Assembly: GCA_965247685.1 (NCBI GenBank)
Contig: OZ252021.1
Location: 1,201-65,200 of the forward strand
DNA from: Bdellovibrionales bacterium
Lineage (GTDB): Bacteria; Bdellovibrionota; Bdellovibrionia; Bdellovibrionales; UBA1609
Reading direction: 5' to 3'
DNA: 64,000 bases
Part shown: piece by piece, positions 11,241-31,706 of the stretch
How positions within the stretch are numbered: position 1 is the stretch's first letter
Layout: every line of letters begins with the position of its first letter
The notes under the pieces: model-generated
Seen by the model: only the letters and a program-made list of their open reading frames with translations
What the model was told of the DNA's origin: nothing
Databases searched by the model: none
Made by a program: the position numbers and the translations under genes

Positions 11241-12587
11241 ATGGTACTCAATTCTAATCCGCAGTCTTCGGAAAATATTTCGATTACAAAGCGTATTCAA
11301 AAATCTAGGTCAAAAAAATCTGCTATTCAAGGGTTTATTTCTTGGTCTTCTCAAAACACATTTCAGCAGCAAGAAGTTCAATCTATGGTGAGTATCGGGC
11401 GTGATTCTGGACAAATGGTCATATTGGATGATCCTTTTACATCGCGCAGACATACTCGAATTGAAAAAAAAGAACAGGCAAGCATCACTTCTTTCATACT
11501 AAAAGATATGTCCAGCCGAAACGGGACATTCCTTAATGGAAATAGAATTTTTCAAGCTGTATTAAAAGATGGCGATCGAATCCTCATTGGTCAAACAGAG
11601 TTTATTTTCTCCTCCCAAAGGTTTAATCAGAATTGGGAGATTTTCCACCGCAGTCTGAATCCCAAATGGAATCAGCAGCTATCTCGAATTCCATCACTGG
11701 CTCGAACAGAATTTCCTATCCTCATTCAAGGACCTACGGGGGCTGGCAAGGAGCATGTCGCTCACATGATTCATCAAAATTCTCAAAGAAGCTCTGGCCC
11801 TTATATAAGTGTCAATTGTAGTGCTTTATCTGAAAACTTAGCAGAAAGTGAATTTTTTGGACATATTAAAGGCTCCTATACCGGTGCTAGCAGTGATCGA
11901 AAAGGGGCTTTCTTAACCGCTCATGGAGGAACTCTTTTCTTAGATGAAATTGGAGATCTTCCTTTGAATTTACAGCCTAAATTACTACGAGCTTTAGAGC
12001 ATAAGGAAATTAAACCTGTTGGATCTGACCAAACGATTCGAGTGGATGTGCGTGTTGTTTCTGCCACTCATCAAAATTTACAAAAAAAAGTACTTCAAAA
12101 AGAATTTCGTGAGGACCTTTATTTTCGATTAAGAGTTTTAGAAGTAAAGACTCCTCACTTAAAAGATCGTATGGAAGACTTTGATGCTTTATTGGAGTAT
12201 TTTTCTGTTCAACTGGGCGTTCATTTTTCCAAGGAAGCAAAAAATTACTTAAAAAACTACAGTTGGCCTGGAAACATTCGTGAACTCAAAAATACAGTTT
12301 CTAGAGCTCAGGCTTTTTATTCTCAATCGATTATCACAACATCCCACATTGAAGAAATACTGGATCCTCTGCATGAAGAAGAAATTACACAAACTCCTTC
12401 CATCCCTTACTCTCCTTCTTTACTCAAACAGATAGAAAAAGAAGCTATTTTACGAGTACTTAAAGAAAATAATGGCAATAAAAAGAAAACTGCAGATCAA
12501 TTAAGTATGCCTCGTACCACTTTAACTCAAAAATTAAAAAACTATGGCGTTTTTACAAGATCTCCAAAAGAATTTATCAACAAATGA
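11241..12587 (+). CDS. Sigma-54-dependent transcriptional activator with an N-terminal FHA domain
   Basis: FHA signature (IGRDSGQMVILDDPFTSRRHTRI...SSRNGTFLNGNRI). AAA+ module with Walker A GPTGAGKE, the GAFTGA variant GHIKGSYTGA, and GGTLFLDEIGDLPL. C-terminal Fis-type HTH (KKKTADQLSMPRTTLTQKLK). Confidence 0.9.
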   Translation: MVLNSNPQSSENISITKRIQKSRSKKSAIQGFISWSSQNTFQQQEVQSMVSIGRDSGQMVILDDPFTSRRHTRIEKKEQASITSFILKDMSSRNGTFLNGNRIFQAVLKDGDRILIGQTEFIFSSQRFNQNWEIFHRSLNPKWNQQLSRIPSLARTEFPILIQGPTGAGKEHVAHMIHQNSQRSSGPYISVNCSALSENLAESEFFGHIKGSYTGASSDRKGAFLTAHGGTLFLDEIGDLPLNLQPKLLRALEHKEIKPVGSDQTIRVDVRVVSATHQNLQKKVLQKEFREDLYFRLRVLEVKTPHLKDRMEDFDALLEYFSVQLGVHFSKEAKNYLKNYSWPGNIRELKNTVSRAQAFYSQSIITTSHIEEILDPLHEEEITQTPSIPYSPSLLKQIEKEAILRVLKENNGNKKKTADQLSMPRTTLTQKLKNYGVFTRSPKEFINK

Positions 12588-18798: not shown

Positions 18799-19350
18799 TT
18801 AAGAGTATTCTTTGATTTGAATAACAGCAAAATTAATTTCTCTAACTCCAGCCTCTGTCAAAGTGTACATAATTTTCTTAATACTTAAAAAATCAATATC
18901 TTCATCGGCCTGTAAAGTTAACTTTTCGTAGGGAAAAATACGTGACACTCCTTCTCTTTTGGTCACCACCACATCATTTTTTGTCTCTTTCTTCAAAATT
19001 TCAATTTCTTGATTCACTCGATCTCTTAATTTTTCAATCATCCAATCTTTATCTCTTTGCACTTCAGAAAAAGTAGCCATTTTTTGACCATTAAAAAGCA
19101 CGGCATCTTTAGAGAAAATGACCACCAAAGAAGGGACGAGTTGTGCTGTACTTGTCGCCTGAGGAAGATCCACTTGATTTGAAATAGGTAAGATCTGATT
19201 CGTAGAAGCATAGTTTTGTAAAAGAAAGACTACTAAAACTGTGAACATATCCACCATCGCTGTTAACTGAAGAACAGCCACCACTTCCCTTTTTGAAGCA
19301 TGTGCTCTTTTATTTCTACGATCTCGGAATCCAGGAACATGAATGGGCAT
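18799..19350 (-). CDS. ExbD/TolR-family proton-channel subunit (AglS/AglQ-like position), long form
   Basis: Basic N-terminus followed by the TM segment LQLTAMVDMFTVLVVFLL typical of ExbD/TolR. It is the last gene of the Glt-like block. Confidence 0.8.
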   Translation of the reverse strand: MPIHVPGFRDRRNKRAHASKREVVAVLQLTAMVDMFTVLVVFLLQNYASTNQILPISNQVDLPQATSTAQLVPSLVVIFSKDAVLFNGQKMATFSEVQRDKDWMIEKLRDRVNQEIEILKKETKNDVVVTKREGVSRIFPYEKLTLQADEDIDFLSIKKIMYTLTEAGVREINFAVIQIKEYS

Positions 19351-19826
19351 TACATCACCTCTCCTGTTGCAATAGTAATTCCCGAAAACCCTTGGGCTAA
19401 AAGGACATCCATTGCCTTAATTAAATTTTTGTAAAGCATTTGATCTTCTGCCGTCACCACCACATCTATTTTTTGAGGATAGCTCTTTTTAATTTTCTTC
19501 AAACTCTTTTGAAGGGCTCTATGGTCATACTCCCCTCTTCGAGAAATAGGAATAAGTTCAATCTGCGATCCCAACACCACTTTATAACCACGAGAAAGCA
19601 CATCTATTCGAAACGGAATTTCTGCAAGAGGAGTGACAACAGCAGGAGGTGTATCATCTACTTTTTGAGCATAAACACTGCTACCTAATTGAATCATTGA
19701 AACCTGAGTCCAAACTGCAGTGATAAGCAGGAAGATAATACACACACTCATCAGGTCAATAAATGGAACTAAGTTAAGATCCACAACACCCGATCTTTTA
19801 CCAGTATTCTCTTCAGTATAAGTCAT
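19350..19826 (-). CDS. ExbD/TolR-family proton-channel subunit (AglQ/AglS-like position)
   Basis: DLNLVPFIDLMSVCIIFLL TM motif and 158 aa. It has a 1-nt overlap with the downstream exbD-like gene. Confidence 0.85.
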   Translation of the reverse strand: MTYTEENTGKRSGVVDLNLVPFIDLMSVCIIFLLITAVWTQVSMIQLGSSVYAQKVDDTPPAVVTPLAEIPFRIDVLSRGYKVVLGSQIELIPISRRGEYDHRALQKSLKKIKKSYPQKIDVVVTAEDQMLYKNLIKAMDVLLAQGFSGITIATGEVM

Positions 19827-19866
19827 GTATCACCTTTTAAAAAATCTTAACTAAACTTTTATAGCT

Positions 19867-20550
19867 TTAAGATTTTTTCAAAGCTTTATCTCGGTTTGAA
19901 ACCACATGATTCATCAAATTCATCGTACTTTCCAACATATCATTAATAGCCCGACTAATTTGAATTTGAAAGAACCCATAAGCCACGATAGCTATAATTG
20001 CAACAAACAAACCAAAAGCTGTACAGTTTAAAGCTTCCGAAATCCCTTTAGAAAGTAAAGCCGCCTTAGTTGCAGCATCTGATTCAGCCACACCACCGAA
20101 AGCTCGAATCAAACCTATAATGGTACCTAACAAACCCACCAAGACACTCACATTGCCAAAGACTGCCAGCAGTGAAGTCCACCCTTCTAAACGAGGAGTT
20201 TCCCGAAGTACAGAAGCATCCATAGCGACCTGCACTTCTTCATCCGGTCTCTTGTTCATCACTTGAACTAAACCTGCTTTCATTGTGTTGGTTAAAGGAG
20301 CGGGGGTTGCATCACAAAAGGCAATGGCCTGTTGTATTTGACCCTGTAACACCATTCCAAAAATGGAACTACTTGCAGATGCTTTATCTATAGAGAATTT
20401 TCTTAGATTAAAAAGCCGTTCTAAAATAAGCACAAACACAAGGATACCGACAGCAGCAATGAAGTACATCGCCAAACCGCCTTCGCAAAAAGCTTTAGCA
20501 AAAAAGTTGCTATAGTTAACACATTCTAAACCTTTAGCTAATTCGTCCAC
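19867..20550 (-). CDS. MotA/TolQ/ExbB-family proton channel (AglR-like position)
   Basis: Three-TM layout with the C-terminal motif GLLGTIIGLIRAF...ISEALNCTAFGLFVAIIA. GTG start with AAGGAGG upstream. Confidence 0.9.
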   Translation of the reverse strand: MDELAKGLECVNYSNFFAKAFCEGGLAMYFIAAVGILVFVLILERLFNLRKFSIDKASASSSIFGMVLQGQIQQAIAFCDATPAPLTNTMKAGLVQVMNKRPDEEVQVAMDASVLRETPRLEGWTSLLAVFGNVSVLVGLLGTIIGLIRAFGGVAESDAATKAALLSKGISEALNCTAFGLFVAIIAIVAYGFFQIQISRAINDMLESTMNLMNHVVSNRDKALKKS

Positions 20551-20666
20551 AAAGACACCTCCTTAATTTAAGCGTATTCCAATGAATACTCTTTTATTTC
20601 AACAAAATTTGAATAGAATACCAACACTTTTTTTTGTTCTCCTTTTATGTGTCTAAAAAATATCCA

Positions 20667-22739
20667 CTAACTTCCAACAAAGACAAATGGATACCCCACG
20701 ACACCTTGACCTCCAGGAGGAACGACTCCTGGAAATTTCCAAGTTTTTAATCGAGCCTTAATGCATTGAGCTAATTTTTTACTTCCTGAGCCGTTACTTA
20801 AAATAGAAACATTCTTGACTACTCCATTATAGATTGTCCATTGGACTTTGATCCGACCCTTTATAGATGGATTATTTTGTAAAACGGAACTATGACACCG
20901 AGCGAGTTGCGCTTTATGTGCTTGTACAATTCTAAAAATAGCGTCCTTATCTAAATTCCCTTCTACATCCACCTCAGAAGTACCAAAGGAAAGATCGACA
21001 GATCCTCGATTTCCTAATCCTCCACCTCTTCTATACCCTTTGATTCCCCCAACTTTTCCTTTTGTAGAAATTCCAGCAATACCGATAATGTTTGAGCCTC
21101 GCCCCCCTGAACCAGCATCTTTAAATTTCGTACCTAGACCATCACCCTCATAAGTCTCTGCAGTTCCTGAAAAACCAGTTGCTTGATCCGCAAGACCTCC
21201 AAGCTCCCCAGCACCAGAATAAGCTTTATCCAATTGTTTTTTCATTCCACTTTTTCCAAAAACTCCAAGTAAACCCACCTTGTTCGGATCGGGCTTTGGA
21301 CTTCTCGCTCCTGAACCTGGTTTTTTTGTCTTAATAGGTGAACTGCCAGATCGTGCAGTAGTCACAACTTTTTTCCTACTTTTCGCTTTTTTCTTGGAAG
21401 CTACCGCACCCATACGTCCTTTTTTAGACTTGGCTTTCTTTTTTATTTGCGGAGTTTTATTAGATTTCTTCGGAGATTTTTTCATTCGAATAGGAATATT
21501 TTTTTTCTTACTTTTTTGGACTTTCTTTTCTGCAATGCGTATTATTTTTTTGGGTGATGGAGGTTTAATTTGCACCACCACTCGACGAATCTTTGTTTCC
21601 TCTAACTTTTCCTCATCCACTAAAGATGGATAATAAACTCCAAAGAAGAAAAATAAAACTAACATGAAACAAACCGAAAGTCCTAACCCAACCAATTCTG
21701 CTTCATTAAAACCAAACAAAGCTCCGGGGTTTGGTTTCGCTTTCAAAGCCGTATAACGAATATATATATGTAAAGAAGAAGAAAAATGAACACAAATAAT
21801 TTCATTCTGCCCTAAAGAAATGCAATAGCCTGAAGGAACTTGATTCATTACTCCTTTTTCAATAGCCACCTTAAAACTGACAGACTTGTTGTTTCGAATA
21901 ATTTTTCCACTCATATGAGAACCAATATGAACCTGAGCTACAGATCCTGTTTGCACTAAATTATAAAGCTCATCGTTCACCATATTAGGTATACGAATGG
22001 AAGCCTTGGAATGATTTCCTATAGTGACGACCTCGTTTTTTTTCGCATGATAAACAGATATAACGCGATCTTCCCAAGCAACCAACACCTCAACTTTATC
22101 CCCTTTTCCAATAGGAATTTCTTTTTCTAAATTTTCAATACGGCTTTTTGGAGCAAAAGTTTTTTTGGACATACGAAGAGGAAGAAAGTTTTTCCAAAGG
22201 TTTTTTCCTCTAGAAGGTGTGGTATCTAAGTTTCGTGAAAGAGGTTTTTCTTTTGGTGGACTCACCTCCTGTGGAGAATCCAAAACTTTTGGTTCTTCTG
22301 TTTTCTGAATGGGAGGCGGAGTCGACTCAGAAATATCAGGAGATTCTGAAACTTCCAATATCTCTTCTTCCACCGCCCCTTCGAGAGGTGGAATCTCTTG
22401 TTCTTTTTGTGGATGGCTTGTTGATTTTTTATGACTGTAAGGAGCTCCTAAAAAAAACTCAATCAAAAACGGAGCAATTTGAATTTTATCTCCTGACTGA
22501 ATCACAGATTCTACTATTTTTTGACCATTGAGCAGTGTTCCGGAAGAACTGCCTAGATCGGAAAGAAAATACTCCTCTCCTCTTTTTTCAATAAAAGCAT
22601 GCCAAGGCAATATATCATCCGCTTGCAGACGGACTTCAATCTCTTCATTGCTCCCAATAGAGAAATGTTCTTCGCTCAACTGCTGAATATTCAAAAGCTT
22701 ATTATCTTTATAAATTTTTAAAAAAATAGTTTTACTCAA
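20667..22739 (-). CDS. GltG/NfsG-like (PglI/AgmX-type) envelope-spanning protein: FHA domain, Pro-rich linker, TM helix, Lys-rich and Gly-rich spacers, TonB-C-like tail
   Basis: N-terminal FHA (FSIGSNEEIEV...FLSDLGSSSGTLLNGQKI). TM helix (LVGLGLSVCFMLVLFFFFGVYY). Lys-rich spacer (KKKAKSKKGR...). The C-terminus LDKDAIFRIVQAHKAQLARCH...IKGRIKVQWTI...CIKARLKTWKFP...VGYPFVF matches my memory of the AgmX/PglI C-terminal domain. Confidence 0.75.
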   Translation of the reverse strand: MSKTIFLKIYKDNKLLNIQQLSEEHFSIGSNEEIEVRLQADDILPWHAFIEKRGEEYFLSDLGSSSGTLLNGQKIVESVIQSGDKIQIAPFLIEFFLGAPYSHKKSTSHPQKEQEIPPLEGAVEEEILEVSESPDISESTPPPIQKTEEPKVLDSPQEVSPPKEKPLSRNLDTTPSRGKNLWKNFLPLRMSKKTFAPKSRIENLEKEIPIGKGDKVEVLVAWEDRVISVYHAKKNEVVTIGNHSKASIRIPNMVNDELYNLVQTGSVAQVHIGSHMSGKIIRNNKSVSFKVAIEKGVMNQVPSGYCISLGQNEIICVHFSSSLHIYIRYTALKAKPNPGALFGFNEAELVGLGLSVCFMLVLFFFFGVYYPSLVDEEKLEETKIRRVVVQIKPPSPKKIIRIAEKKVQKSKKKNIPIRMKKSPKKSNKTPQIKKKAKSKKGRMGAVASKKKAKSRKKVVTTARSGSSPIKTKKPGSGARSPKPDPNKVGLLGVFGKSGMKKQLDKAYSGAGELGGLADQATGFSGTAETYEGDGLGTKFKDAGSGGRGSNIIGIAGISTKGKVGGIKGYRRGGGLGNRGSVDLSFGTSEVDVEGNLDKDAIFRIVQAHKAQLARCHSSVLQNNPSIKGRIKVQWTIYNGVVKNVSILSNGSGSKKLAQCIKARLKTWKFPGVVPPGGQGVVGYPFVFVGS

Positions 22740-22757
22740 TGTATGATAGCCTCTTTT

Positions 22758-23018
22758 TTACTCCAGTTCTCCTGCTGTTCGTCTCATTTCAGGAAGAAAA
22801 TCCTTTTTCAAATCCACAAGCTTATCATATTCCAATTGTTGCTTATTGAATAAGTGAAAAATAGTCGGGTTTTTAACATGACCTTCAATAAATTCATCTT
22901 CAAAGTCTACAGTGTATATTCGTTTTTTCCCTTTCTTCGCTATAGCTCCACTTATAAAAAGAGCTGAAGCAATGATCAAGCCAACATATAATATTTTATA
23001 TTTTCTAAATATTTCCAT
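22758..23018 (-). CDS. Small single-pass membrane protein (GltF/NfsF position)
   Basis: 86 aa with an N-terminal TM helix (ILYVGLIIASALFISGAIA). It sits between the TPR gene and the FHA/TonB-like gene. The assignment is positional only. Confidence 0.5.
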   Translation of the reverse strand: MEIFRKYKILYVGLIIASALFISGAIAKKGKKRIYTVDFEDEFIEGHVKNPTIFHLFNKQQLEYDKLVDLKKDFLPEMRRTAGELE

Positions 23019-23021
23019 ATA

Positions 23022-23771
23022 TTACCTCTTTTTATTAAGTTTCTTTTTTAACAATTGCACTCTTTTTCTATCCCTTGAATTTCGAGCCCTAATGTCCGCA
23101 CGATCAAGCATTTTTTGTGCTTCTTCGTAGTCATTAAAACTTTCCATTAAAAGCAACGCATAATTCATTAAAATCAAAGAATTTTCTTTTTTCTTTTTTA
23201 TAACAGTTTTGTAGATTTTTCTGGCTTTCTTCTCTTTTCCAGACAATCTTAATGCCAGAGCATAGTTATGTGCAATAGGTGCAAAGAATTTAGACAGTTG
23301 ATCATCAGAATAAACATCTTCCAGTAAAGGTAGAGCTTTTCGTACATTCAAATTTTCCATATAAAGCGAAGAGAGTGCAACTCGAGCTGGATGATAAGAC
23401 CTACTTTTTTTCAAACTCTGCTCAAAAGCAAGAATTGCTTTTTGTTCATCTTTTTCTTTCAAAGCAATAAGACCTTGAGCGTAATACAAGGCCTCCTCAT
23501 GAGGATGATATTGAACTGCTTTTTCAAAAAGAATCCGAGCAATTCCTATTTGATTTCTTTCTAAATGATATGTTCCTAATTTATACAAAGCACCTAAGTG
23601 TTTAGGATTCTCAGATAAAACACGGCGAGCCCAAGTTTGAAATCGTGATAGATTTTTACTATTATACGCTTGATTCATTTTTTTTACTTTCTGATCCAAT
23701 GAAAGAATCTCTTCGGCCTCAACAAAAAGAGCAAAGATCCATATCAAAGTAAATAATTTGAATTTACTCAT
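23022..23771 (-). CDS. Secreted TPR-repeat protein (GltE/NfsE position)
   Basis: I placed the start at ATG 23771, which makes an ATGA overlap with the upstream stop and gives the signal peptide MSKFKLFTLIWIFALFVEA. The track's 282-aa form would overlap the upstream gene by 103 nt. TPR-like A/Y/L periodicity runs throughout. Confidence 0.7.
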   Translation of the reverse strand: MSKFKLFTLIWIFALFVEAEEILSLDQKVKKMNQAYNSKNLSRFQTWARRVLSENPKHLGALYKLGTYHLERNQIGIARILFEKAVQYHPHEEALYYAQGLIALKEKDEQKAILAFEQSLKKSRSYHPARVALSSLYMENLNVRKALPLLEDVYSDDQLSKFFAPIAHNYALALRLSGKEKKARKIYKTVIKKKKENSLILMNYALLLMESFNDYEEAQKMLDRADIRARNSRDRKRVQLLKKKLNKKR

Positions 23772-26700
23772 CTCAAAACTCCAGCAGGAATAGTCCTTAA
23801 AGCAGATCCCTCTATAGAAAAAGATCCTTTTTCCAAATTGATATTTTCTAACTGCGCCTTTTTCAACCATGAGGTGTAACTGAGTGAACTTCTCGCTTTT
23901 TGAATAGCCTGAGCATAATAACCCTTGGCCACTTTTTGAAAAGGAGTCGCTGTTTTTACAAGCCCTTTCTTATAGGCTTTTCGACCTTGAGCATCTAACC
24001 CTTTGGGTATAGGAGAGCGAATGATCACATTATAGAGGTGGTGATTAGACAAACCCATCAAAGTCAAAGAGGCTATAATTTGTGGATTATAATTCAGTCG
24101 AATGACATTTTTAATATCTTCTTTCAAACGATTGAGTAATTGAAGCTTAGACCGCATGGCTCGAGCCTGTTGATTTGGATTAGAAGATAAACGAATGCGA
24201 GTAAACTTATTATAAATTTGTTCAGAAGAGTAGAATCGAGCTTGAGAAGCGTACTCCACACCTTGCTTTGTTTTTCGGTACATATTTAAAGTTATACGAT
24301 ACCATTTTTGCATCTCTTGTTTTCTTCTTAATTTCTTATTTAACTCAGCAATACGAAAAGTAGACATCACTTGAGCTCTTTTATTTTGATCGGGACGATT
24401 CAAGTATTTCTGATAAAGCTGAATAGATTTGGAATAACTTTTCCTTCTTTCATACATTCGAGCAATCAAGAAGTATACTTGATTTCTTTCCACTCCTTTT
24501 TTACTCAAACGAAAATACTTCATGTAAGCTTCTTCTGCAGATTGATAGAAGTTTAAGCCATCAAAAATAATAGCGGCATTATACCAAAAGGAAGCAGCAT
24601 TTTTATCTTTAGGATAAGTTGTAGCATAACTTTTATAAGATTGAGCTGCTTTGAGATACTGCCCAGAGTTTTGAAGAATTTCCGCTATATCCCGCATCAC
24701 ATTTTTTTTAATTTTAGGATACTTCGAAAGCTGTGGAGAGTTATAAAGTATGTCATAAAGATTTCTAGATTTACTAATCTCTTTTGCCTTCTCATAATTT
24801 AAAGCTGCATTGTAAAGCGCAACTACGGTCAAATCGGAGCCTGTATTTTTACGATAAAACTCTTCATACATCTTTGCACTCGCTTTATATTTTTTATTAT
24901 TAGCTAAATCTTGGGCTGCTTTGAACTGAATTTGCCTTAAAATTTTATTAATCTCTTGAGCAATAGGTAATTTTTGAATCATAGATTGTTTAAGAAAGTA
25001 CTGCCCTGTCTTTTTTAAAGAATCAAAATCTTTTATCAAGTTATAAGTGTCCAATACTAAGTGAATCGATTGAGTATAATAAGATTTTTTTGATGAAGGA
25101 TAACTTCGAATCAAAATCATCCAATACTTAATAGCTGTTTTGTAATGTCGATACTCCGAGTGCAGATTAGCGAGAGTATATATAATTTGAGGGGCTTGAG
25201 ATTTTTTCTTATACCTCTTTAAATAATCCCCCACCGCTTCTTCGAAGGCTACAACATTTGAAGGAAAAGGAACAGCTCCAGACTGACCCTTTAAAGAAGC
25301 TTTCACTTCTCGTTCATTTGGTAATGCTTTTTCTAAAGCTAAGATTCTATTCCAAGAAGCTACAGGGTGGTTTTTAGATTTTGGATAATTATTCACTACA
25401 ACACTATACTGTTTCACCGCATCTAAAAAACGACCGACATCAAAAAGAAGCTCTCCGTATTGAAAACGAATGTCAGAATTAAAATCTGACTTTGGAAAAA
25501 CCAAGGTATAAAGTTGATAAGCTAATAAAGCTTGTTCCTTTGCATACTTTTGCTTGCTCTTTAAAAAAGAATGGTGCATCACAAAGGCATAGTTTCTTAT
25601 CGTCAGCTCCATTAATTTATTAGATTTTTGAATCAATTCTTTTTGAGAACGATGCTTACGAGACCAATCACTTTTAGGACCATAGTTCTTCACCCATTCT
25701 TTAAGTTCTTTATTAAAAGTTTTTCGATCTCCTTTATAAGCATAGACTTGAACAATTTCATGTTTATATTCAAAAGCAAAACGATTCAAGGGAACAAGTT
25801 TTAAAATAAAATTAAATACGAAACGCATATTTTGATATTCACCCGCATCCTTGTAGGCAAAACCTACTTTTCTCAATATAGATAAAGTTTTTTCTTCATC
25901 ATTGGTTAAATCATAAAAATAAGAATAAGCATTACTGGCTTTATAATTGGAATAAATATAAAAACTTCCCAAATCATTTAAAGCTTCCTGCGAAAGATCG
26001 ATAAAAATTAAAGATTTCCCTTGATTTTTTATTCGAGACTCTTTAATGAGACTTGCCAAAACCTTTATTGCATTAGAGATCCGACCTTCGTTGTAAAAAC
26101 ACCAAGCTATTTTATAGATAGAAAAAGAATAAAACTTCGCTCGGTATCGAGAAGCTCTACTGTAATACTTACGAGCCGTCTTCCATTGATTTTGTTCAAA
26201 GTAGTGATCCCCTAAGTGAAAATAGGCGTCTTCAATGTTGCTGTTTTTAGGATATTGACGAATCAGCCTTTCATAATATTTTTTACCAATATGAGGTTTT
26301 CTAATCTGAACATAACTAAACCCTAAATTAAAAAGAGCGTCCGAAGCATATTTTCCTTTAGGGTATCTTTGAATATAGGATTCGTATAAATTAATGGCTT
26401 TTTGAGAGTACTCCTTAACTACGGATAAGTTGATGCGAGGGGCTCTTGTAGTCGATCCCATTTTATATAGCTCTAAATCTTCTGTGTATTTTTCATAAAT
26501 ACGACTTTCGATCAAGCGAGCCTGCTCTACATAAAGAGAGGCGAGTCTTAATTGGATATCCGATCGAGGACTAATTTTAAGAAGTTCATAAAGTTGTTTG
26601 ATCTCCCTTAAGGTCACATCTTCGAGTTGAGCTTCATCACTTCCCTTTTCAAAATAAAGACGACTGCTAGAAGGAGGCTTCACATATTTTAATAATTCTT

Positions 26701-26890
26701 TTTTCTTTTTACCTTTTTTTTGAAAGAAAGATTTCCCTCGAGGTAAACTCCCTTTTTGCCTTTTGATGCTCTTAGATGATCGAGTCGCCACCAACCAAGA
26801 AGACTCTTCTTGAGCGACACTCCAACTCAGACTACCCAAAATGAGCAGAATGATGCAAATTCTAAGGGCGACAGTTTTGCGATCCCACAT
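23768..26890 (-). CDS. Large TPR-repeat protein (GltD/AgmU / NfsD-like)
   Basis: 1040 aa with a signal/anchor segment (ICIILLILGSLSWSVAQ). Dozens of TPR-like repeats follow (A..Y..LI..YP.s....A.f.lg motif recurring). Confidence 0.8.
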   Translation of the reverse strand: MWDRKTVALRICIILLILGSLSWSVAQEESSWLVATRSSKSIKRQKGSLPRGKSFFQKKGKKKKELLKYVKPPSSSRLYFEKGSDEAQLEDVTLREIKQLYELLKISPRSDIQLRLASLYVEQARLIESRIYEKYTEDLELYKMGSTTRAPRINLSVVKEYSQKAINLYESYIQRYPKGKYASDALFNLGFSYVQIRKPHIGKKYYERLIRQYPKNSNIEDAYFHLGDHYFEQNQWKTARKYYSRASRYRAKFYSFSIYKIAWCFYNEGRISNAIKVLASLIKESRIKNQGKSLIFIDLSQEALNDLGSFYIYSNYKASNAYSYFYDLTNDEEKTLSILRKVGFAYKDAGEYQNMRFVFNFILKLVPLNRFAFEYKHEIVQVYAYKGDRKTFNKELKEWVKNYGPKSDWSRKHRSQKELIQKSNKLMELTIRNYAFVMHHSFLKSKQKYAKEQALLAYQLYTLVFPKSDFNSDIRFQYGELLFDVGRFLDAVKQYSVVVNNYPKSKNHPVASWNRILALEKALPNEREVKASLKGQSGAVPFPSNVVAFEEAVGDYLKRYKKKSQAPQIIYTLANLHSEYRHYKTAIKYWMILIRSYPSSKKSYYTQSIHLVLDTYNLIKDFDSLKKTGQYFLKQSMIQKLPIAQEINKILRQIQFKAAQDLANNKKYKASAKMYEEFYRKNTGSDLTVVALYNAALNYEKAKEISKSRNLYDILYNSPQLSKYPKIKKNVMRDIAEILQNSGQYLKAAQSYKSYATTYPKDKNAASFWYNAAIIFDGLNFYQSAEEAYMKYFRLSKKGVERNQVYFLIARMYERRKSYSKSIQLYQKYLNRPDQNKRAQVMSTFRIAELNKKLRRKQEMQKWYRITLNMYRKTKQGVEYASQARFYSSEQIYNKFTRIRLSSNPNQQARAMRSKLQLLNRLKEDIKNVIRLNYNPQIIASLTLMGLSNHHLYNVIIRSPIPKGLDAQGRKAYKKGLVKTATPFQKVAKGYYAQAIQKARSSLSYTSWLKKAQLENINLEKGSFSIEGSALRTIPAGVLR

Positions 26891-28385
26891 AATGATAATT
26901 CCCCAGTTCGTCTAACCAGTATTCTCCTTGAAAAGGATAATACTCAAATCCATTTTGAATAAAATAATCTCGGCTTGTACTTGCCGTGATTTGAACATTT
27001 CCAAAATGTTTTGATTTAATTTTTCTCTTTAGCAGTTCTCTTTTTCCACGCAAACTCTCATAACGTAAGTATTTTTCCTGATTCAACAAGCTCCTCAGTT
27101 CTGACTTCATAACTAATAAGTGCTGTTTGATATTTTTATTAATATTAGATTGCGCTCTTTTGAGATATTTTTCCACTAAATTTTCTGAATACCGACCTAT
27201 TTGAGACGCCCTCCAATACTGAGGTCGACCTTGGATCACCCGAAGCTCACTTTGAAGATATCGAACATAACGATTCAAAAGCTCAAAGTCGTACTCTCTA
27301 CTAATTCTGTTCGCAATCACTGGAGGAAAAGAATTGGAAGAAGAACGAAGGGATCGGGTGAGATTGGCATAATAAAATTGAGAAGAAGACGAAAGGATTC
27401 GATTCACTTTTTTATACAAAGGCTGATAAGTAATCTTGAATAAACTCAGCACTTTTTCCATCTCTGAGTATTTACATATATACATATATATTATTCCTCT
27501 TAAAAGAAGAGAGCCTGGTTGATACACTTTATCATAATAATCAGAGTGCAAAGTAAGAAAACTATTCATTGCAGAACGAAACTTCCCTCCCCTCAGTAAG
27601 GCCCAACTGCTTTCAAAAAGCATATCATGCCATTCTGGAGTATCTCGGGGAATTCTCCTATAGTACTGAATTGCTAAGTCCCATCTTTTAGCCTGATAAT
27701 ACACACGGGCTATCCCCATTAAGGCGGCCACTCGGACAGAATCTGTGACCTTGCTTGTTTTGGATAAAATATTTTTAAAAGCATCCGTAGCTCTTCGAGT
27801 TCGCTTCCTTTCTGCATAAGAAAGCCCCAGATGATACTGAGCCTTAGAATAAAGAGGGCTGTGTTTTGGAATTTTTTTAAAATAAATAGCAGCCTTACGA
27901 TACTTTTTACTACTCAACTCATGTTTACCCCAGTAATAGTAAAGAGAATACCTGTAAGCCCCTTTGACTTTTTGAGCTCCTCCGTTTTCAACAGCAAATT
28001 GGATCATCTGACTGTTTCCGATCAGAGAGGCAATTTCAGACAGGTGAGCCAAAGCCCGCTGAGCAAACTTAGAGTTTCCAGATTGAATCACTGATAAAAA
28101 TTGAAAAGAAGCCACATGAAATAACTTCATTTTAACAAGAGCCTTCCCTAATTCATAACGAATTTCTGTTCTGCGTTTTTTTAAAGTCGCACTTTTACTC
28201 ATCATGAATAATTTTTGAACTCCCTTTTCATACTTTCCATTCGATATTAAAGCTAAAGCCTGACTGAGTTGAATACGATCTTTCATTTTATTTCGAATCT
28301 GTCTGGATTTTTGAAGCGAATACTTGCTCGTACGAGCTTCTGCACTCCCCATCAATAAGAAAAAAGTCAAAAATATATATCTCAA
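26862..28385 (-). CDS. Secreted TPR-repeat protein (GltC/NfsC position)
   Basis: Signal peptide MRYIFLTFFLLMGSAEA followed by TPR-like repeats. 507 aa. Confidence 0.7.
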   Translation of the reverse strand: MRYIFLTFFLLMGSAEARTSKYSLQKSRQIRNKMKDRIQLSQALALISNGKYEKGVQKLFMMSKSATLKKRRTEIRYELGKALVKMKLFHVASFQFLSVIQSGNSKFAQRALAHLSEIASLIGNSQMIQFAVENGGAQKVKGAYRYSLYYYWGKHELSSKKYRKAAIYFKKIPKHSPLYSKAQYHLGLSYAERKRTRRATDAFKNILSKTSKVTDSVRVAALMGIARVYYQAKRWDLAIQYYRRIPRDTPEWHDMLFESSWALLRGGKFRSAMNSFLTLHSDYYDKVYQPGSLLLRGIIYMYICKYSEMEKVLSLFKITYQPLYKKVNRILSSSSQFYYANLTRSLRSSSNSFPPVIANRISREYDFELLNRYVRYLQSELRVIQGRPQYWRASQIGRYSENLVEKYLKRAQSNINKNIKQHLLVMKSELRSLLNQEKYLRYESLRGKRELLKRKIKSKHFGNVQITASTSRDYFIQNGFEYYPFQGEYWLDELGNYHYVGSQNCRP

Positions 28386-28389
28386 GAAA

Positions 28390-29148
28390 CTACCTCACAA
28401 CCTTTTGAGGAAAATAAAAACTGACGGCTAATTTCATATAAGTATCCCAGTAATGTTGATTGCTAGGTATATTTTGAGAAAAAAGTAAACTTCCATAATA
28501 ATGAAACCCTATATCTACTTTGAACGCAAGATTTCGAGATAGAGAATAAGACTGACCAAAACCTAATACCAACGTCGGCTCAAACCAAGATTCCGTTGCA
28601 GCACAAGAAACACCCGTTGCTACATTTACAGATCGGCACTGTTGCACTTGGCTCATTCCTCCTCCCACAATTATTGAAAAATCAAAAGGGATAATCTTTT
28701 TATTCCACCATGCCATTTTTCCGTAAACAGGAGTCCATTTATAAAGTAAACCGGCAAACCCTATTGTGCTGGCTCCTTTAGAAGCTGCACTAATACGTAA
28801 ATTCTCATAAATATCAAAAGCCACTTCTCGATTCACTTGAAATAAATAAAATCCTTTTAATTCCAATCCATGTTTTTCTAAAAAATAAAACCCAACACTT
28901 CCCCCCAAACCCAATTTGAAGAAAAACTCACTGCTGAAAAATATAGATACAGAAGGAGAGATTTCAAATCGACCTGTCTTTTGTAAAAAACGTCTTTGAA
29001 TCACGACAATATCTTCAAAAGCAGATAGACGATTGAGATTATCAGAAAGTTGCATCGGTATATCATCATTGATTGTAAAAGCGTAACTCGAATTCACAAA
29101 TAGTAAACTCAAACCTATAATCCATAAGTATTTTTTCACAAATTTCAT
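28390..29148 (-). CDS. Outer-membrane beta-barrel protein (GltB/NfsB position)
   Basis: Signal peptide (LLFVNSSYA/FT) and alternating amphipathic strands. It is a paralog of the upstream 309-aa protein (GGSVGFYFLEKHGLELKGFYLFQ versus TGDVGFFLSEAHGLSLLGMYFFQ). Confidence 0.65.
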   Translation of the reverse strand: MKFVKKYLWIIGLSLLFVNSSYAFTINDDIPMQLSDNLNRLSAFEDIVVIQRRFLQKTGRFEISPSVSIFFSSEFFFKLGLGGSVGFYFLEKHGLELKGFYLFQVNREVAFDIYENLRISAASKGASTIGFAGLLYKWTPVYGKMAWWNKKIIPFDFSIIVGGGMSQVQQCRSVNVATGVSCAATESWFEPTLVLGFGQSYSLSRNLAFKVDIGFHYYGSLLFSQNIPSNQHYWDTYMKLAVSFYFPQKVVR

Positions 29149-29233
29149 AAACTTAAAAAACCCCTTTTTATTTCATACTGCTGCAAACTCATCTAAAACT
29201 ATCCTTCACTCAAATTATTCGAATATAAAAAGT

Positions 29234-30163
29234 TTAAAATAACAAAGCTCCAAATCCAGCTCCTACTAAGTTTCTAAAAACAAAAGATTTTTCAAATTGA
29301 TCATAATTTTTAGTTTGTGAACGGTATAAAGAACAAGAACGAGAATCCACTTTATCAACTGGAAGACTGACAGCTCCTATTCTACACCAAACTGGATTCG
29401 GTCCATAATAGAAAAAAAATCTCAACCAACCATGAATATAGAATCTTTTCCCAATAAAAATCTTTTGATTGATCCCAGTTATAAGGATAGGCGCAAAATA
29501 CAATTGTGATAAATCATAAGATTCGTAAGGACCAGGGTTTCGATCCTGAACCAGAGCAACCGTACCTCCTCCTAAATGAAGAGAAATATTATAGTTCATC
29601 ACAACATTTTTAAGCAAAGACAACTTTCCGTAAAAGGGTATCCAATTATAGTTCAACAAAAAAGCATATCTAGGATGAGGAACTTCCGTTGCGTGAAAAG
29701 AAATATTTTGTAACTCTGTATTGGGTTTGGAGAAGAACTCTCCTATAGAAGAAACCCCTTGAAAAAAGTACATACCTAAGAGGCTTAGACCATGAGCTTC
29801 ACTAAGAAAAAACCCTACATCTCCAGTAAAAGCCAGTCGAGAGTAAAAAGGATCATCAGCTCTATAATCTATAGAACTCATCATACTCATCTTATATTTT
29901 AACTTCACATTGCGATTCATGGTTACTTTGTTATTATCTGGAAAAATAGGGAGAACAGATTCTGCAGCAAGCTCTTCTTCTGGAAAACGAATTTCACGAG
30001 CCTCCACCCATAAAGAACAAAATAGAAAAAAACAAGCTATTTTGAGACATAAGAACCCAAATGGCACGATAAAATACTCCTTAAAACCAAAGGTTAACTG
30101 TTTATATTTTAAATGACTATTTAATAAATGTGTAGTGACATTAGTAAAGAGGTCGAGTTCCAA
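29234..30163 (-). CDS. Outer-membrane beta-barrel protein (GltA/NfsA position)
   Basis: Hydrophobic signal region (FLCLKIACFFLFCSLWVEA) and beta-strand periodicity. It shares NYNWIPFYGKLSLL...GGG with the 252-aa paralog (LYKWTPVYGKMAWW...GGG). The exact start is uncertain because the pre-signal extension is long. Confidence 0.65.
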   Translation of the reverse strand: MELDLFTNVTTHLLNSHLKYKQLTFGFKEYFIVPFGFLCLKIACFFLFCSLWVEAREIRFPEEELAAESVLPIFPDNNKVTMNRNVKLKYKMSMMSSIDYRADDPFYSRLAFTGDVGFFLSEAHGLSLLGMYFFQGVSSIGEFFSKPNTELQNISFHATEVPHPRYAFLLNYNWIPFYGKLSLLKNVVMNYNISLHLGGGTVALVQDRNPGPYESYDLSQLYFAPILITGINQKIFIGKRFYIHGWLRFFFYYGPNPVWCRIGAVSLPVDKVDSRSCSLYRSQTKNYDQFEKSFVFRNLVGAGFGALLF

Positions 30164-30282
30164 GAAGACTCTTATAGATCACTTTATGACAGGAGCAAAA
30201 TCCAGACTTCATGCTCTGATAAACCTATGGGTGAGTGTATAAAATATAGACACTATAGTGGCTTATTTATTAATGAAAAAAG

Positions 30283-31647
30283 TTAGATACGGATAGAAAT
30301 ATCCATAAAAGCTAAATGATCGATTTTGTTCTCATCTGAGGCAGAGATTTCTTTACCTCGCATTGTATATTTAAGCCCCAATGCAACACCATCGCTTAAG
30401 AAATACTTTAGAGCTAAGCGATGCCCTGAATATCCTGTGCCACCAATATCATAATCCACATAGTTGCTGAAGGCGACATCTGTGGGCAATCTAAAGTAAT
30501 GATAACTGGCATTGAATTGCTGGTTTTGTTGATGTCCAAAAACTCCACCAACAACAAATCCTAAAGTTTCTAAGGATGCGCTATTGATATAACCCGATCC
30601 AAAATTTTGAATCAAATTCAAAGATAAAGAAAGAGGAGTGCTTAATTCCACACCTTTGAATCTAAGATTCTTAATGTCCATTCTTACAAGCAGATCCAAT
30701 ACAGAATAATTATATTTGTAACTTTGTTGTTTTGTTTTTGCAGATTCCAATACACTGTTGGTTGTATATGTACTCGAAACAAACATATCTTTTGTAGGCA
30801 TACTATAGTAAACAGCGTTGAAACCAAAATCGTAATCTGTATTCTGCATCAACAAATTTGTAGATAAAGACCACATAAACCTGTTAGACGAATTAATAAG
30901 CTTCTGAGAAGACTCAGAAAGATACTTCTTAGAATCCACTCGCTCAAAACTAGGTAATAAAGCTGCACCATAACCTGTAATCAAAGGACTAATAGCATCT
31001 ACAAAAAATCCAGATAGCTTTACATCTAGATTGTAACGATTTAAAAATTCTCTTTGATAGTGGCCATAAATACCTTCTGGAGAGATATGCTCATCCCATA
31101 GGATACTGTAGTTTTTTTTATCGTACAAAGGAGAAGTTGAAAACTTCCCGACATTCAACATAAATCTGTCGTTAAAGGCATAAGATGCAGATACCCCTTG
31201 GAGCCATATTGGTTTGCCATTAACTCCCCCAATGAAGCTTTTCGGATCACTGAAAGAAATACTGCCATATTCTGCAGAATACCAGCCCCCAGAAGCTAAT
31301 TCAACATTCATACTCAGTTTAGAATTCACATGGTAAGATCCTCCTGCTACAAACTTCACTTGAAAAAGAGGAGAGAAGAATTCATCACCATAAATTTGAA
31401 TATAACGAAAGTTCAGATCACTAAAAAACCCTGAAGAGTCACTGTCTAATGAGGAATAAAGATGTTTAGAGGAGGCTAATTCTCTGGATTGTTGGGGTTG
31501 ATAAGCCGTAAGCAAATGAGAATTGAATTTTTTAGAGCCTGAATCTGAATAAGCCAACAACAGATTGGAATCTAAAATTGCTGATCCGTTTTTGGCAGAA
31601 GCCCAAACAGATCCCAATAAAAACAAAATAGATACGAACAATTTCAT
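30283..31647 (-). CDS. Putative outer-membrane beta-barrel / porin-like protein at the head of the Glt-like block
   Basis: Signal peptide MKLFVSILFLLGSVWASA, Tyr/Ser/Asn/Gly-rich alternating strands, 454 aa. The family is not recognised. A GltH/NfsH-like role is only a guess. Confidence 0.55.
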   Translation of the reverse strand: MKLFVSILFLLGSVWASAKNGSAILDSNLLLAYSDSGSKKFNSHLLTAYQPQQSRELASSKHLYSSLDSDSSGFFSDLNFRYIQIYGDEFFSPLFQVKFVAGGSYHVNSKLSMNVELASGGWYSAEYGSISFSDPKSFIGGVNGKPIWLQGVSASYAFNDRFMLNVGKFSTSPLYDKKNYSILWDEHISPEGIYGHYQREFLNRYNLDVKLSGFFVDAISPLITGYGAALLPSFERVDSKKYLSESSQKLINSSNRFMWSLSTNLLMQNTDYDFGFNAVYYSMPTKDMFVSSTYTTNSVLESAKTKQQSYKYNYSVLDLLVRMDIKNLRFKGVELSTPLSLSLNLIQNFGSGYINSASLETLGFVVGGVFGHQQNQQFNASYHYFRLPTDVAFSNYVDYDIGGTGYSGHRLALKYFLSDGVALGLKYTMRGKEISASDENKIDHLAFMDISIRI

Positions 31648-31676: not shown

Positions 31677-31706
31677 ACCCAAGTCTTACATACCCAAGTC
31701 TTACAT
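31677..31706. repeat. Perfect 15-bp tandem direct repeat (ACCCAAGTCTTACAT x2)
   Basis: Read directly: 31677-31691 equals 31692-31706. It lies 30-59 nt upstream of the start codon (31647) of the first gene of the Glt-like block. Confidence 0.95.

Follow-up and report, generated by a model that had tools for sequence, protein, structure and literature searches.

Which molecular machine is encoded by a run of eleven consecutive, co-oriented genes in a genome of only 1.28 Mb, and what work might it do for its host? The genes lie on the minus strand, at 18799-31647, of the 64,000-nucleotide (nt) stretch analysed here (the window; positions 1,201 to 65,200 of contig OZ252021.1, assembly GCA_965247685.1). 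Their host, an uncultured bacterium of the Bdellovibrionales, has a reduced, single-contig genome, about 95% complete and about 36% G+C, whose nearest relatives are Bdellovibrionales metagenome-assembled genomes (MAGs) of 1.3-1.5 Mb. In block order, the open reading frames (ORFs) encode 454, 309, 252, 507, 1040, 282 (or 249), 86, 690, 227, 158 and 183 amino acids (aa). An earlier note on this DNA had read the block as an Agl-Glt/Nfs-type cluster, with structural genes in A to G order followed by motor genes. All eleven ORFs are indeed present in the order and at the coordinates it gave, and both family models and ten-gene synteny support its reading. Our answer to the first part of the question is that positions 18799-30067 (minus strand) very probably represent the ten-protein orthologue of the Bd0828-Bd0838 Agl-Glt cluster of Bdellovibrio bacteriovorus. 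This type of cluster has been known since 2010-2011, and the finding is one of annotation rather than discovery.

We regard the block as the Bd0828-0838 orthologue because its ten proteins match the corresponding locus of B. bacteriovorus strain kdesi one for one. The lengths in kdesi are 241/263/525/1058/287/108/711/221/158/196 aa, and those published for Bd0828-0838 of strain HD100 are 240/266/529/1066/281/-/707/221/158/196 aa (Luciano 2011 Table S3, PMC3169522); protein identity between the cluster and that of kdesi ranges from 26 to 62%. The ten genes, from the first barrel gene to aglS, are collinear in all 16 regions that we fetched and in all 51 full-length loci of the genome collection, a set that includes B. 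bacteriovorus strain kdesi, Bdellovibrio sp. HCB185ZH, HCB209 and HCB2-146, and a Pseudobdellovibrio MAG. Since the same order recurs in 51/51 and 16/16 loci, the arrangement is far beyond chance. In the profile search of the collection, GltG alone retrieved nothing, and it was the GltC alignment that retrieved the loci. An orthologue of GltG occurs in 40 of 41 relatives, and GltC-type genes were found in 184 of the 201 genomes sampled across the phylum.

The gene-for-gene match with Bd0828-Bd0838 answers the comparison with Bdellovibrio that the earlier note had called for, and it connects the block to a body of published work. Four 'tonB-like/agl' clusters have been described in HD100, namely Bd0412-0420, Bd0828-0838, Bd1473-1483 and Bd2368-2377 (Lambert 2010, PMC2797640). 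Luciano 2011 (PMC3169522) termed the four Bdellovibrio clusters 'expanded core complexes' and considered Bd0828-0838, in which the agl genes come nearest to the aglRQS of motility, the most promising candidate for a gliding apparatus. The same study reported that Bdellovibrio lacks GltH, GltI, GltJ and GltK, and proposed that the possession of AglRQS and GltA-G makes any bacterium a potential glider. That motor and structural genes are linked, a point to which the earlier note had drawn attention, is correct and already published for Bdellovibrio (PMC3169522); such a compact arrangement is the rule in this order.

At the level of individual proteins, the searches with gliding-motility models yielded matches to GltC, GltG, AgmX/PglI, GltF, OMP_myx_plus, MotA_ExbB and, twice, ExbD, along with a weak match to GltE. 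The strongest is that of the 690-aa protein (20667-22739), a GltG-type force transducer that aligns with NF033760 (gliding_GltG) along almost the entire profile (E 4.6e-58, positions 1-646 of 650). Over its last 92 residues it also scores 81 bits against NF033768, the model of the AgmX/PglI C-terminal domain, twice what the cut-off of 40 demands, and Pfam identifies an FHA domain. The AlphaFold2 model, built on an alignment of 14 orthologues, predicts, in order, an N-terminal FHA sandwich, a disordered linker, a beta-sandwich (residues 210-332) and a transmembrane (TM) helix (346-369). Beyond the helix come a long disordered Lys-/Gly-rich stretch and a confidently modelled C-terminal alpha/beta domain, the TonB-C-like AgmX/PglI domain. 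The combination of FHA, TM and TonB-C-like regions anticipated from the sequence is thus borne out by both family models and by the predicted domain map. The same architecture has been described for GltG of Myxococcus xanthus (PMC11761067). The FHA fold closely resembles GarA and OdhI (Foldseek TM-score 0.84-0.88), yet none of the 14 aligned orthologues has the canonical Gly-Arg or the Ser of the phosphothreonine-binding SxxH motif. In M. xanthus the partner of the GltG FHA domain is GltI, which is reported to be absent from Bdellovibrio (PMC3169522).

The 507-aa protein (26862-28385) is a tetratricopeptide repeat (TPR) protein that matches NF033756 (gliding_GltC; E 1.5e-54, profile positions 110-619 of 622, 186 bits, a family-level score) and carries an invariant EYWLDExG...C motif at its C-terminus. 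We annotate it as the GltC-type periplasmic connector, predicted to be associated with the outer membrane. TPR repeats are likewise recognized by Pfam in the 1040-aa protein and in the product of the 282-aa ORF. The former (23768-26890), which has a signal peptide and which we assign to the GltD/AgmU type of large periplasmic TPR proteins, has only generic YbgF/CpoB/BamD-type TPR matches in Pfam and NCBIfam. Its putative identity comes from a 1058-aa protein of strain kdesi (31% identity, E 3e-156) that by length and position corresponds to Bd0832 (1066 aa), and Bd0832 in turn is listed as the homologue of MXAN_4870 (GltD/AgmU), next to Bd0833 as GltE (Luciano 2011 Table S3, PMC3169522). Similarity to Glt/Nfs proteins, on which the earlier note had staked its reading, is therefore present both in the C-terminus of the 690-aa protein, through the 81-bit AgmX/PglI match, and in the 1040-aa protein, through orthology to Bd0832.

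The short TPR protein (23022-23771) is probably of the GltE/AgmT type. Of its two possible starts, only ATG 23771 gives it a signal peptide, which favours a length of 249 aa, as originally suggested, over the 282 aa of the longer ORF. It matches Bd0833 by position and length and hits NF033758 (gliding_GltE) with E 7.6e-13 and 48 bits (cut-off 225), beside many other TPR families. The GltD and GltE assignments are thus sequence-based predictions founded on orthology to Bdellovibrio proteins together with generic TPR matches. In 19 of the 51 related loci the two genes are joined in an uninterrupted ORF of 1261-1311 aa; the remaining 32 have them as separate genes, -20 to +85 nt apart, a pattern that suggests a fusion or fission event in this order. 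A contact between GltD and GltE has been predicted by AlphaFold in M. xanthus (PMC11761067), and the recurrent fusion provides independent genomic support for it. The next gene (22758-23018) encodes an 86-aa protein with an N-terminal membrane anchor or signal, whose sole match is to NF033764 (gliding_CglF; E 8.1e-6, profile positions 30-88 of 88, 26 bits against a cut-off of 90). CglF is the same protein as GltF (PMC4488436), and the GltF-type gene is kept in all 51 loci.

The two small barrels that open the cluster belong to the GltA/GltB family. Barrel 2 (28390-29148; 252 aa, with a signal peptide) matches TIGR04565 (OMP_myx_plus) over the whole profile (positions 2-161 of 161) with E 4.8e-16 and 59.2 bits, just below the cut-off of 60, and barrel 1 (29234-30067) matches the same model with E 1.8e-11 and 44.3 bits. 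They had been taken for paralogues, and they are: the two share 32% identity over 127 aa (E 9e-14). In the ORF listing barrel 1 begins at TTG 30163 and is 309 aa long. We moved its start to GTG 30067, most likely the true one, because an AGGAG sequence (30081-30077) is placed 9 nt upstream of it and because orthologues align only from about residue 40-55 of the longer ORF; the resulting protein has 277 aa. An orthologue of barrel 1 occurs in 51/51 loci. By synteny barrel 1 is of the Bd0828 type and barrel 2 of the Bd0829 type. In Table S3 of Luciano 2011 (PMC3169522), Bd0829 is listed as the homologue of MXAN_2539 (GltB), and Bd0828 appears under 'MXAN_2541', apparently a misprint for 2540.

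At the other end of the cluster, three genes encode the putative motor. The AglR-type protein (19867-20550, start approximate; 227 aa) is a MotA/TolQ/ExbB-type proton channel subunit by its match to PF01618 (MotA_ExbB; E 3.4e-28), and it is 55-86% identical across relatives. It scores 79 bits against the TolQ model, compared with 221 bits (at the cut-off) for the genuine TolQ of the same genome, with which it shares 34% identity over TM2-TM3, including both conserved Thr residues. Two ExbD/TolR-type stator subunits follow, both matching PF02472: the AglQ-type protein (19350-19826; 158 aa, E 4.8e-16), with Asp24 in its TM helix, and the AglS-type protein (18799-19350; 183 aa, E 4.4e-12), with Asp34. 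Both aspartates were seen directly in the sequences, and the two proteins resemble each other only around the TM segment. By position and length they are of the Bd0837 and Bd0838 type, respectively; Bd0837 (158 aa) is listed as the homologue of MXAN_6861 and Bd0838 (196 aa) as that of MXAN_6860 (Table S3, PMC3169522). It is plausible that the three proteins form a working proton channel, since the conserved threonines of TolQ and the TM aspartates of both ExbD-type subunits are kept.

Most junctions between the genes are tight, although gltG and aglR are 116 nt apart. The three overlaps quoted in the earlier note are all real: the stop codon of gltD and the ATG of gltE share ATGA at 23768-23771, as read in the sequence, and ORF coordinates give overlaps of 29 nt between gltC and gltD (26862-26890) and of 1 nt between aglQ and aglS (19350). 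Scans of the region for promoters and terminators gave counts not above those for shuffled sequence. The block is flanked by hisS, a sodB-like superoxide dismutase gene, a poly(A)-polymerase-like gene, pyrG, the EF-G gene, dcd, a CNNM-family gene and uvrB. A sigma-54 activator with FHA, AAA+ and HTH_8 domains is encoded 6 kb from the cluster, at 11241-12587 on the plus strand of the window.

Several considerations weigh against the reading of the block as an Agl-Glt gliding machine. The whole-protein score of GltG is 197 bits, compared with an equivalog cut-off of 650, and the 186 bits of GltC compare with a cut-off of 450; both cut-offs are tuned to Myxococcus, and both matches are of family level rather than equivalogs. 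The GltE match is largely TPR-driven. No GltD-specific model matched the 1040-aa protein: NF033757 (CglB) and NF033759 (TraA), tried while seeking one, gave no match, and a homologue search with the protein returned relatives that were either unnamed or called generically 'tetratricopeptide repeat protein', with no named GltD among them. GltJ and CglB, which are essential for gliding in M. xanthus, have no match here. For GltJ, NF033761 hits only the C-terminal domain of GltG, so the genome has no separate gltJ; for CglB, NF033757 found nothing in the genome at E <= 0.01, a model that also matched no control genome. GltH, GltI and GltK, which M. xanthus likewise needs for gliding, are absent from Bdellovibrio according to Luciano 2011, and a comparison of gene sizes revealed no counterpart (a 17.5-20 kDa barrel or lipoprotein, or a giant TPR protein) within the block or next to it. 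For the uncultured host, the evidence consists of sequence and predicted models. Moreover, a 2026 review still calls the gliding machinery of Bdellovibrio unidentified, and the Nfs machine and the gammaproteobacterial core complexes serve jobs other than motility (PMC3169522).

How might such a machine work? From the gene content, gene order, orthology and domain architecture observed here, its stoichiometry, contacts and motility output can be proposed by analogy with M. xanthus, drawing on genetics (PMC3169522) and on an AlphaFold-based model (PMC11761067). An AglR pentamer in the inner membrane, holding AglQ and AglS, would convert proton flow into movement by way of the TM aspartates. This movement would be passed to the TM helix of GltG, whose disordered periplasmic stretch would span the cell wall. 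The conserved Gly-rich segment and TonB-C-like end of GltG may then dock on the GltD pillar, which itself would bind GltE and GltF, and GltC would couple this GltD/E/F shaft to the GltA/B barrel pair in the outer membrane. In this way, energy from the inner membrane could move or load a site of surface contact, producing slow gliding on surfaces or on prey.

The genomic setting bears on how this engine might be used. The genome has one Glt-type cluster, with a single GltC gene and a single AgmX/PglI match above the cut-off, and jackhmmer found in it no paralogues of the 507-aa, 86-aa and 454-aa proteins and no further small barrels. The count of paralogous clusters that the earlier note had proposed thus comes to one, versus four in B. 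bacteriovorus. No flagellin (PF00669) was detected in the genome, nor in eight other reduced relatives (1.2-1.8 Mb), whereas relatives of 3.0 and 4.2 Mb have 8-10 flagellin matches. Judging by gene content, the reduced Bdellovibrionales lineages seem to have no flagella. An orthologue of the cluster's GltC is kept by six of those eight relatives; one has a weak, partial match and one has none at all. GltC-type genes are single in five of the reduced relatives, with two copies in one and three in another, and the two large genomes (3.0 and 4.2 Mb) have three and four. Seven PilB/PilT-type ATPase genes are present in the source genome, and it also encodes an MglA-like GTPase with 52% identity over 195 aa to an approximate MglA probe sequence. 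This 197-aa small GTPase (genome C1:499825-500418, plus strand) directly follows dnaX and recR, with no Roadblock/MglB-like gene evident adjacent to it. As a separate observation, the genome contains three consecutive Zorya-like genes (C1:387580-390364, plus strand) matching ZorA2, ZorB2 and ZorE (E 5.5e-51, 1.7e-50 and 8.8e-58) with scores well below the equivalog cut-offs, suggesting a divergent type II Zorya-like anti-phage system.

Because the Bd0828-type cluster is usually the sole Glt-type cluster kept in reduced, flagellin-less Bdellovibrionales (1.2-1.8 Mb), we tentatively propose that it may be the ancestral engine of the order for surface motility or prey contact, sufficient with ten genes and without GltH, GltI, GltJ, GltK or CglB. 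We consider this proposal possible but less likely than not. In the genus of the source genome, the operon may also have recruited a porin. If true, the proposal would single out, among the four clusters of B. bacteriovorus, the gliding motor that has long been sought, and would define a minimal Agl-Glt machine. Since the 2026 review still lists that motor among the unidentified, the retention pattern in reduced genomes helps, if indirectly, to mark the Bd0828-type cluster as the conserved candidate. Structural and genetic studies could also use the single cluster of such genomes as a naturally minimal version. The value added here is comparative context: a 1.28-Mb genome with one Glt cluster, no flagellin and MglA retained, and a similar pattern in other reduced relatives.

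The alternative that survives best accepts the same Agl-Glt-type machine but gives it other work, either at the surface during predation (attachment, entry and exit) or in moving envelope material in the manner of Nfs. We consider it rather unlikely, while recognizing that experimental data from B. bacteriovorus speak for it: a mutant with a transposon in Bd0838 (aglS) has lost attachment to prey as well as killing and rounding (PMC6561027). The reuse of the scaffold for non-motility tasks in Nfs and in the gammaproteobacterial core complexes (PMC3169522) fits as well, as does the lack of matches for the adhesin CglB (with a model blank in controls too) and for GltJ. However, B. bacteriovorus is documented to glide, does so without flagella or pili, and needs this ability to invade prey and to leave it again (2026 review); the agl genes of Bd0828-0838 are the ones closest to motility aglRQS; and, with no flagellin in the genome, any active movement would need a surface motor. 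In fact, since gliding itself is needed for prey invasion and exit, the motility and predation roles may be one and the same activity.

A second alternative concerns the extent of the machine. Upstream of barrel 1, on the same strand, lies the gene for the 454-aa protein (30283-31647), which could be an eleventh component, a lineage-specific outer-membrane partner replacing GltH or GltK and co-transcribed with the glt genes. The gene is indeed immediately upstream in all four genomes of the genus, and one promoter in the 323-bp divergent region between it and the EF-G gene could serve all eleven genes. The nature of the protein makes such a role improbable. It has no Pfam or NCBIfam match itself, and only 30 matches among 1.84 billion representative proteins; of 27 relatives found by phmmer, 25 match PF16930 (Porin_5; best E 3.9e-60). 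The AlphaFold2 model (predicted local distance difference test score 75) is a large beta-barrel, and the best Foldseek matches, OmpM1, OprB, OmpU, OmpC, PorB and AlgE (E 1e-12 to 1e-8), place its fold with those of diffusion porins. GltK and GltH of M. xanthus are proteins of 17.5 and 20 kDa, not of 50 kDa. The position of the gene directly upstream of the glt genes is also confined to the genus: neither a hidden Markov model of the four genus members nor jackhmmer revealed a diverged version ahead of the cluster in the other Bdellovibrionales, where an unrelated or a HAD-phosphatase-like gene precedes it instead. Finally, a spacer of 215 nt (30068-30282), which contains the AGGAG sequence of barrel 1, separates the porin gene from the first glt gene and leaves room for a putative promoter of the glt cluster itself. 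In relatives, the glt genes must be expressed from upstream of the first barrel, because these relatives have no porin there. Of the claims in the earlier note about this protein, the barrel stands but membership in the machine does not, and we treat the gene as a neighbouring one encoding a divergent, lineage-specific Porin_5 outer-membrane porin rather than a Glt/Nfs component.

Two features of the upstream region may be recorded here. The 323-bp divergent region contains a perfect 15-bp direct tandem repeat, ATGTAAGACTTGGGT in two copies (31677-31706, minus strand), 30-59 nt upstream of the porin ATG. The cluster of Bdellovibrio and Pseudobdellovibrio is directly preceded by a gene for a HAD-phosphatase-like protein of about 170-185 aa, located some 500 nt ahead of the first barrel gene. 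We considered the ~170-aa upstream ORF of Bdellovibrio as an analogue of GltK/GltH and rejected it, as its DxDGV motif reads as that of a HAD (KdsC-like) phosphatase; the source genome has no homologue of this protein (best E 0.35).

A reading of the block as a system of the Tol-Pal or TonB type, serving nutrient uptake or the integrity of the envelope, could appeal to three features: its motor proteins fall in the TolQ/ExbB and TolR/ExbD superfamilies, GltG has a TonB-C-like end, and the TPR proteins show YbgF/CpoB-like matches. That reading is hardly credible, since a genuine TolQ, TolR and TolA-like set (865-867 kb) and an ExbB-ExbB-ExbD-TonB set (691-695 kb) reside elsewhere in the genome, the flanks are housekeeping genes, the channel protein is a poor match to the TolQ model, and specific GltC, GltG, GltF and AgmX/PglI models match the block. 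TolB, Pal and TonB-dependent receptor genes, the partners that according to the earlier note would have reassigned the block, are found neither in it nor beside it. The motor of the cluster is accordingly not the housekeeping Tol/TonB motor, given these separate sets. The TonB module itself (C1:691881-694798, plus strand) is unusual, comprising a 453-aa ExbB-like protein with a long N-terminal extension, a 173-aa ExbB-like protein, ExbD and a 199-aa TonB.

Compared with known systems, the Agl-Glt-type cluster described here shares with Tol-Pal and ExbBD-TonB the motor superfamily and a TM-anchored transducer with a TonB-C-like end; unlike them, it has two different ExbD-type subunits and large TPR partners, and no TolB, Pal or receptor. 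Its closest counterpart, Bd0828-Bd0838 of HD100, has the same ten genes in the same order and of near-identical lengths, a linked motor, and no GltH, GltI, GltJ or GltK. The differences lie in the surroundings: HD100 has four clusters compared with one here, in a 1.28-Mb host without flagellin, and a locus of the HD100 type is preceded by a HAD-phosphatase-like gene where this one is preceded by a porin gene. The Agl-Glt machine of M. xanthus has homologues of GltA/B, C, D, E, F and G and of AglR, Q and S, the same GltG architecture, two distinct ExbD-type subunits with TM Asp residues, and MglA in the genome. In M. xanthus, however, the genes are dispersed over three loci (G1 gltD-J, G2 gltK-B-A-C and M1 aglRQS), whereas here they form one block; GltC (507 aa) and GltE (249 aa) are shorter here than their counterparts (~670 and ~450 aa), and the GltG FHA domain differs in lacking the canonical phosphothreonine-binding Arg and Ser. 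The Nfs system of M. xanthus (nfsA-H), dedicated to spore-coat assembly, resembles the block in being a single locus in which two barrels are followed by C, D, E, F and G, and in its dependence on an AglRQS-type motor. It differs in possessing NfsH, in having no linked motor genes and in its role in sporulation, of which there is no sign in the present host. The 'core complex' of gammaproteobacteria, Geobacter and Fibrobacter (gltC, D, E, G and aglRQS) is an operon-like block as well, with the seven Group B genes and a linked motor. To this core the block adds the Group A genes, two barrels and gltF, which Luciano 2011 (PMC3169522) ties to motility.

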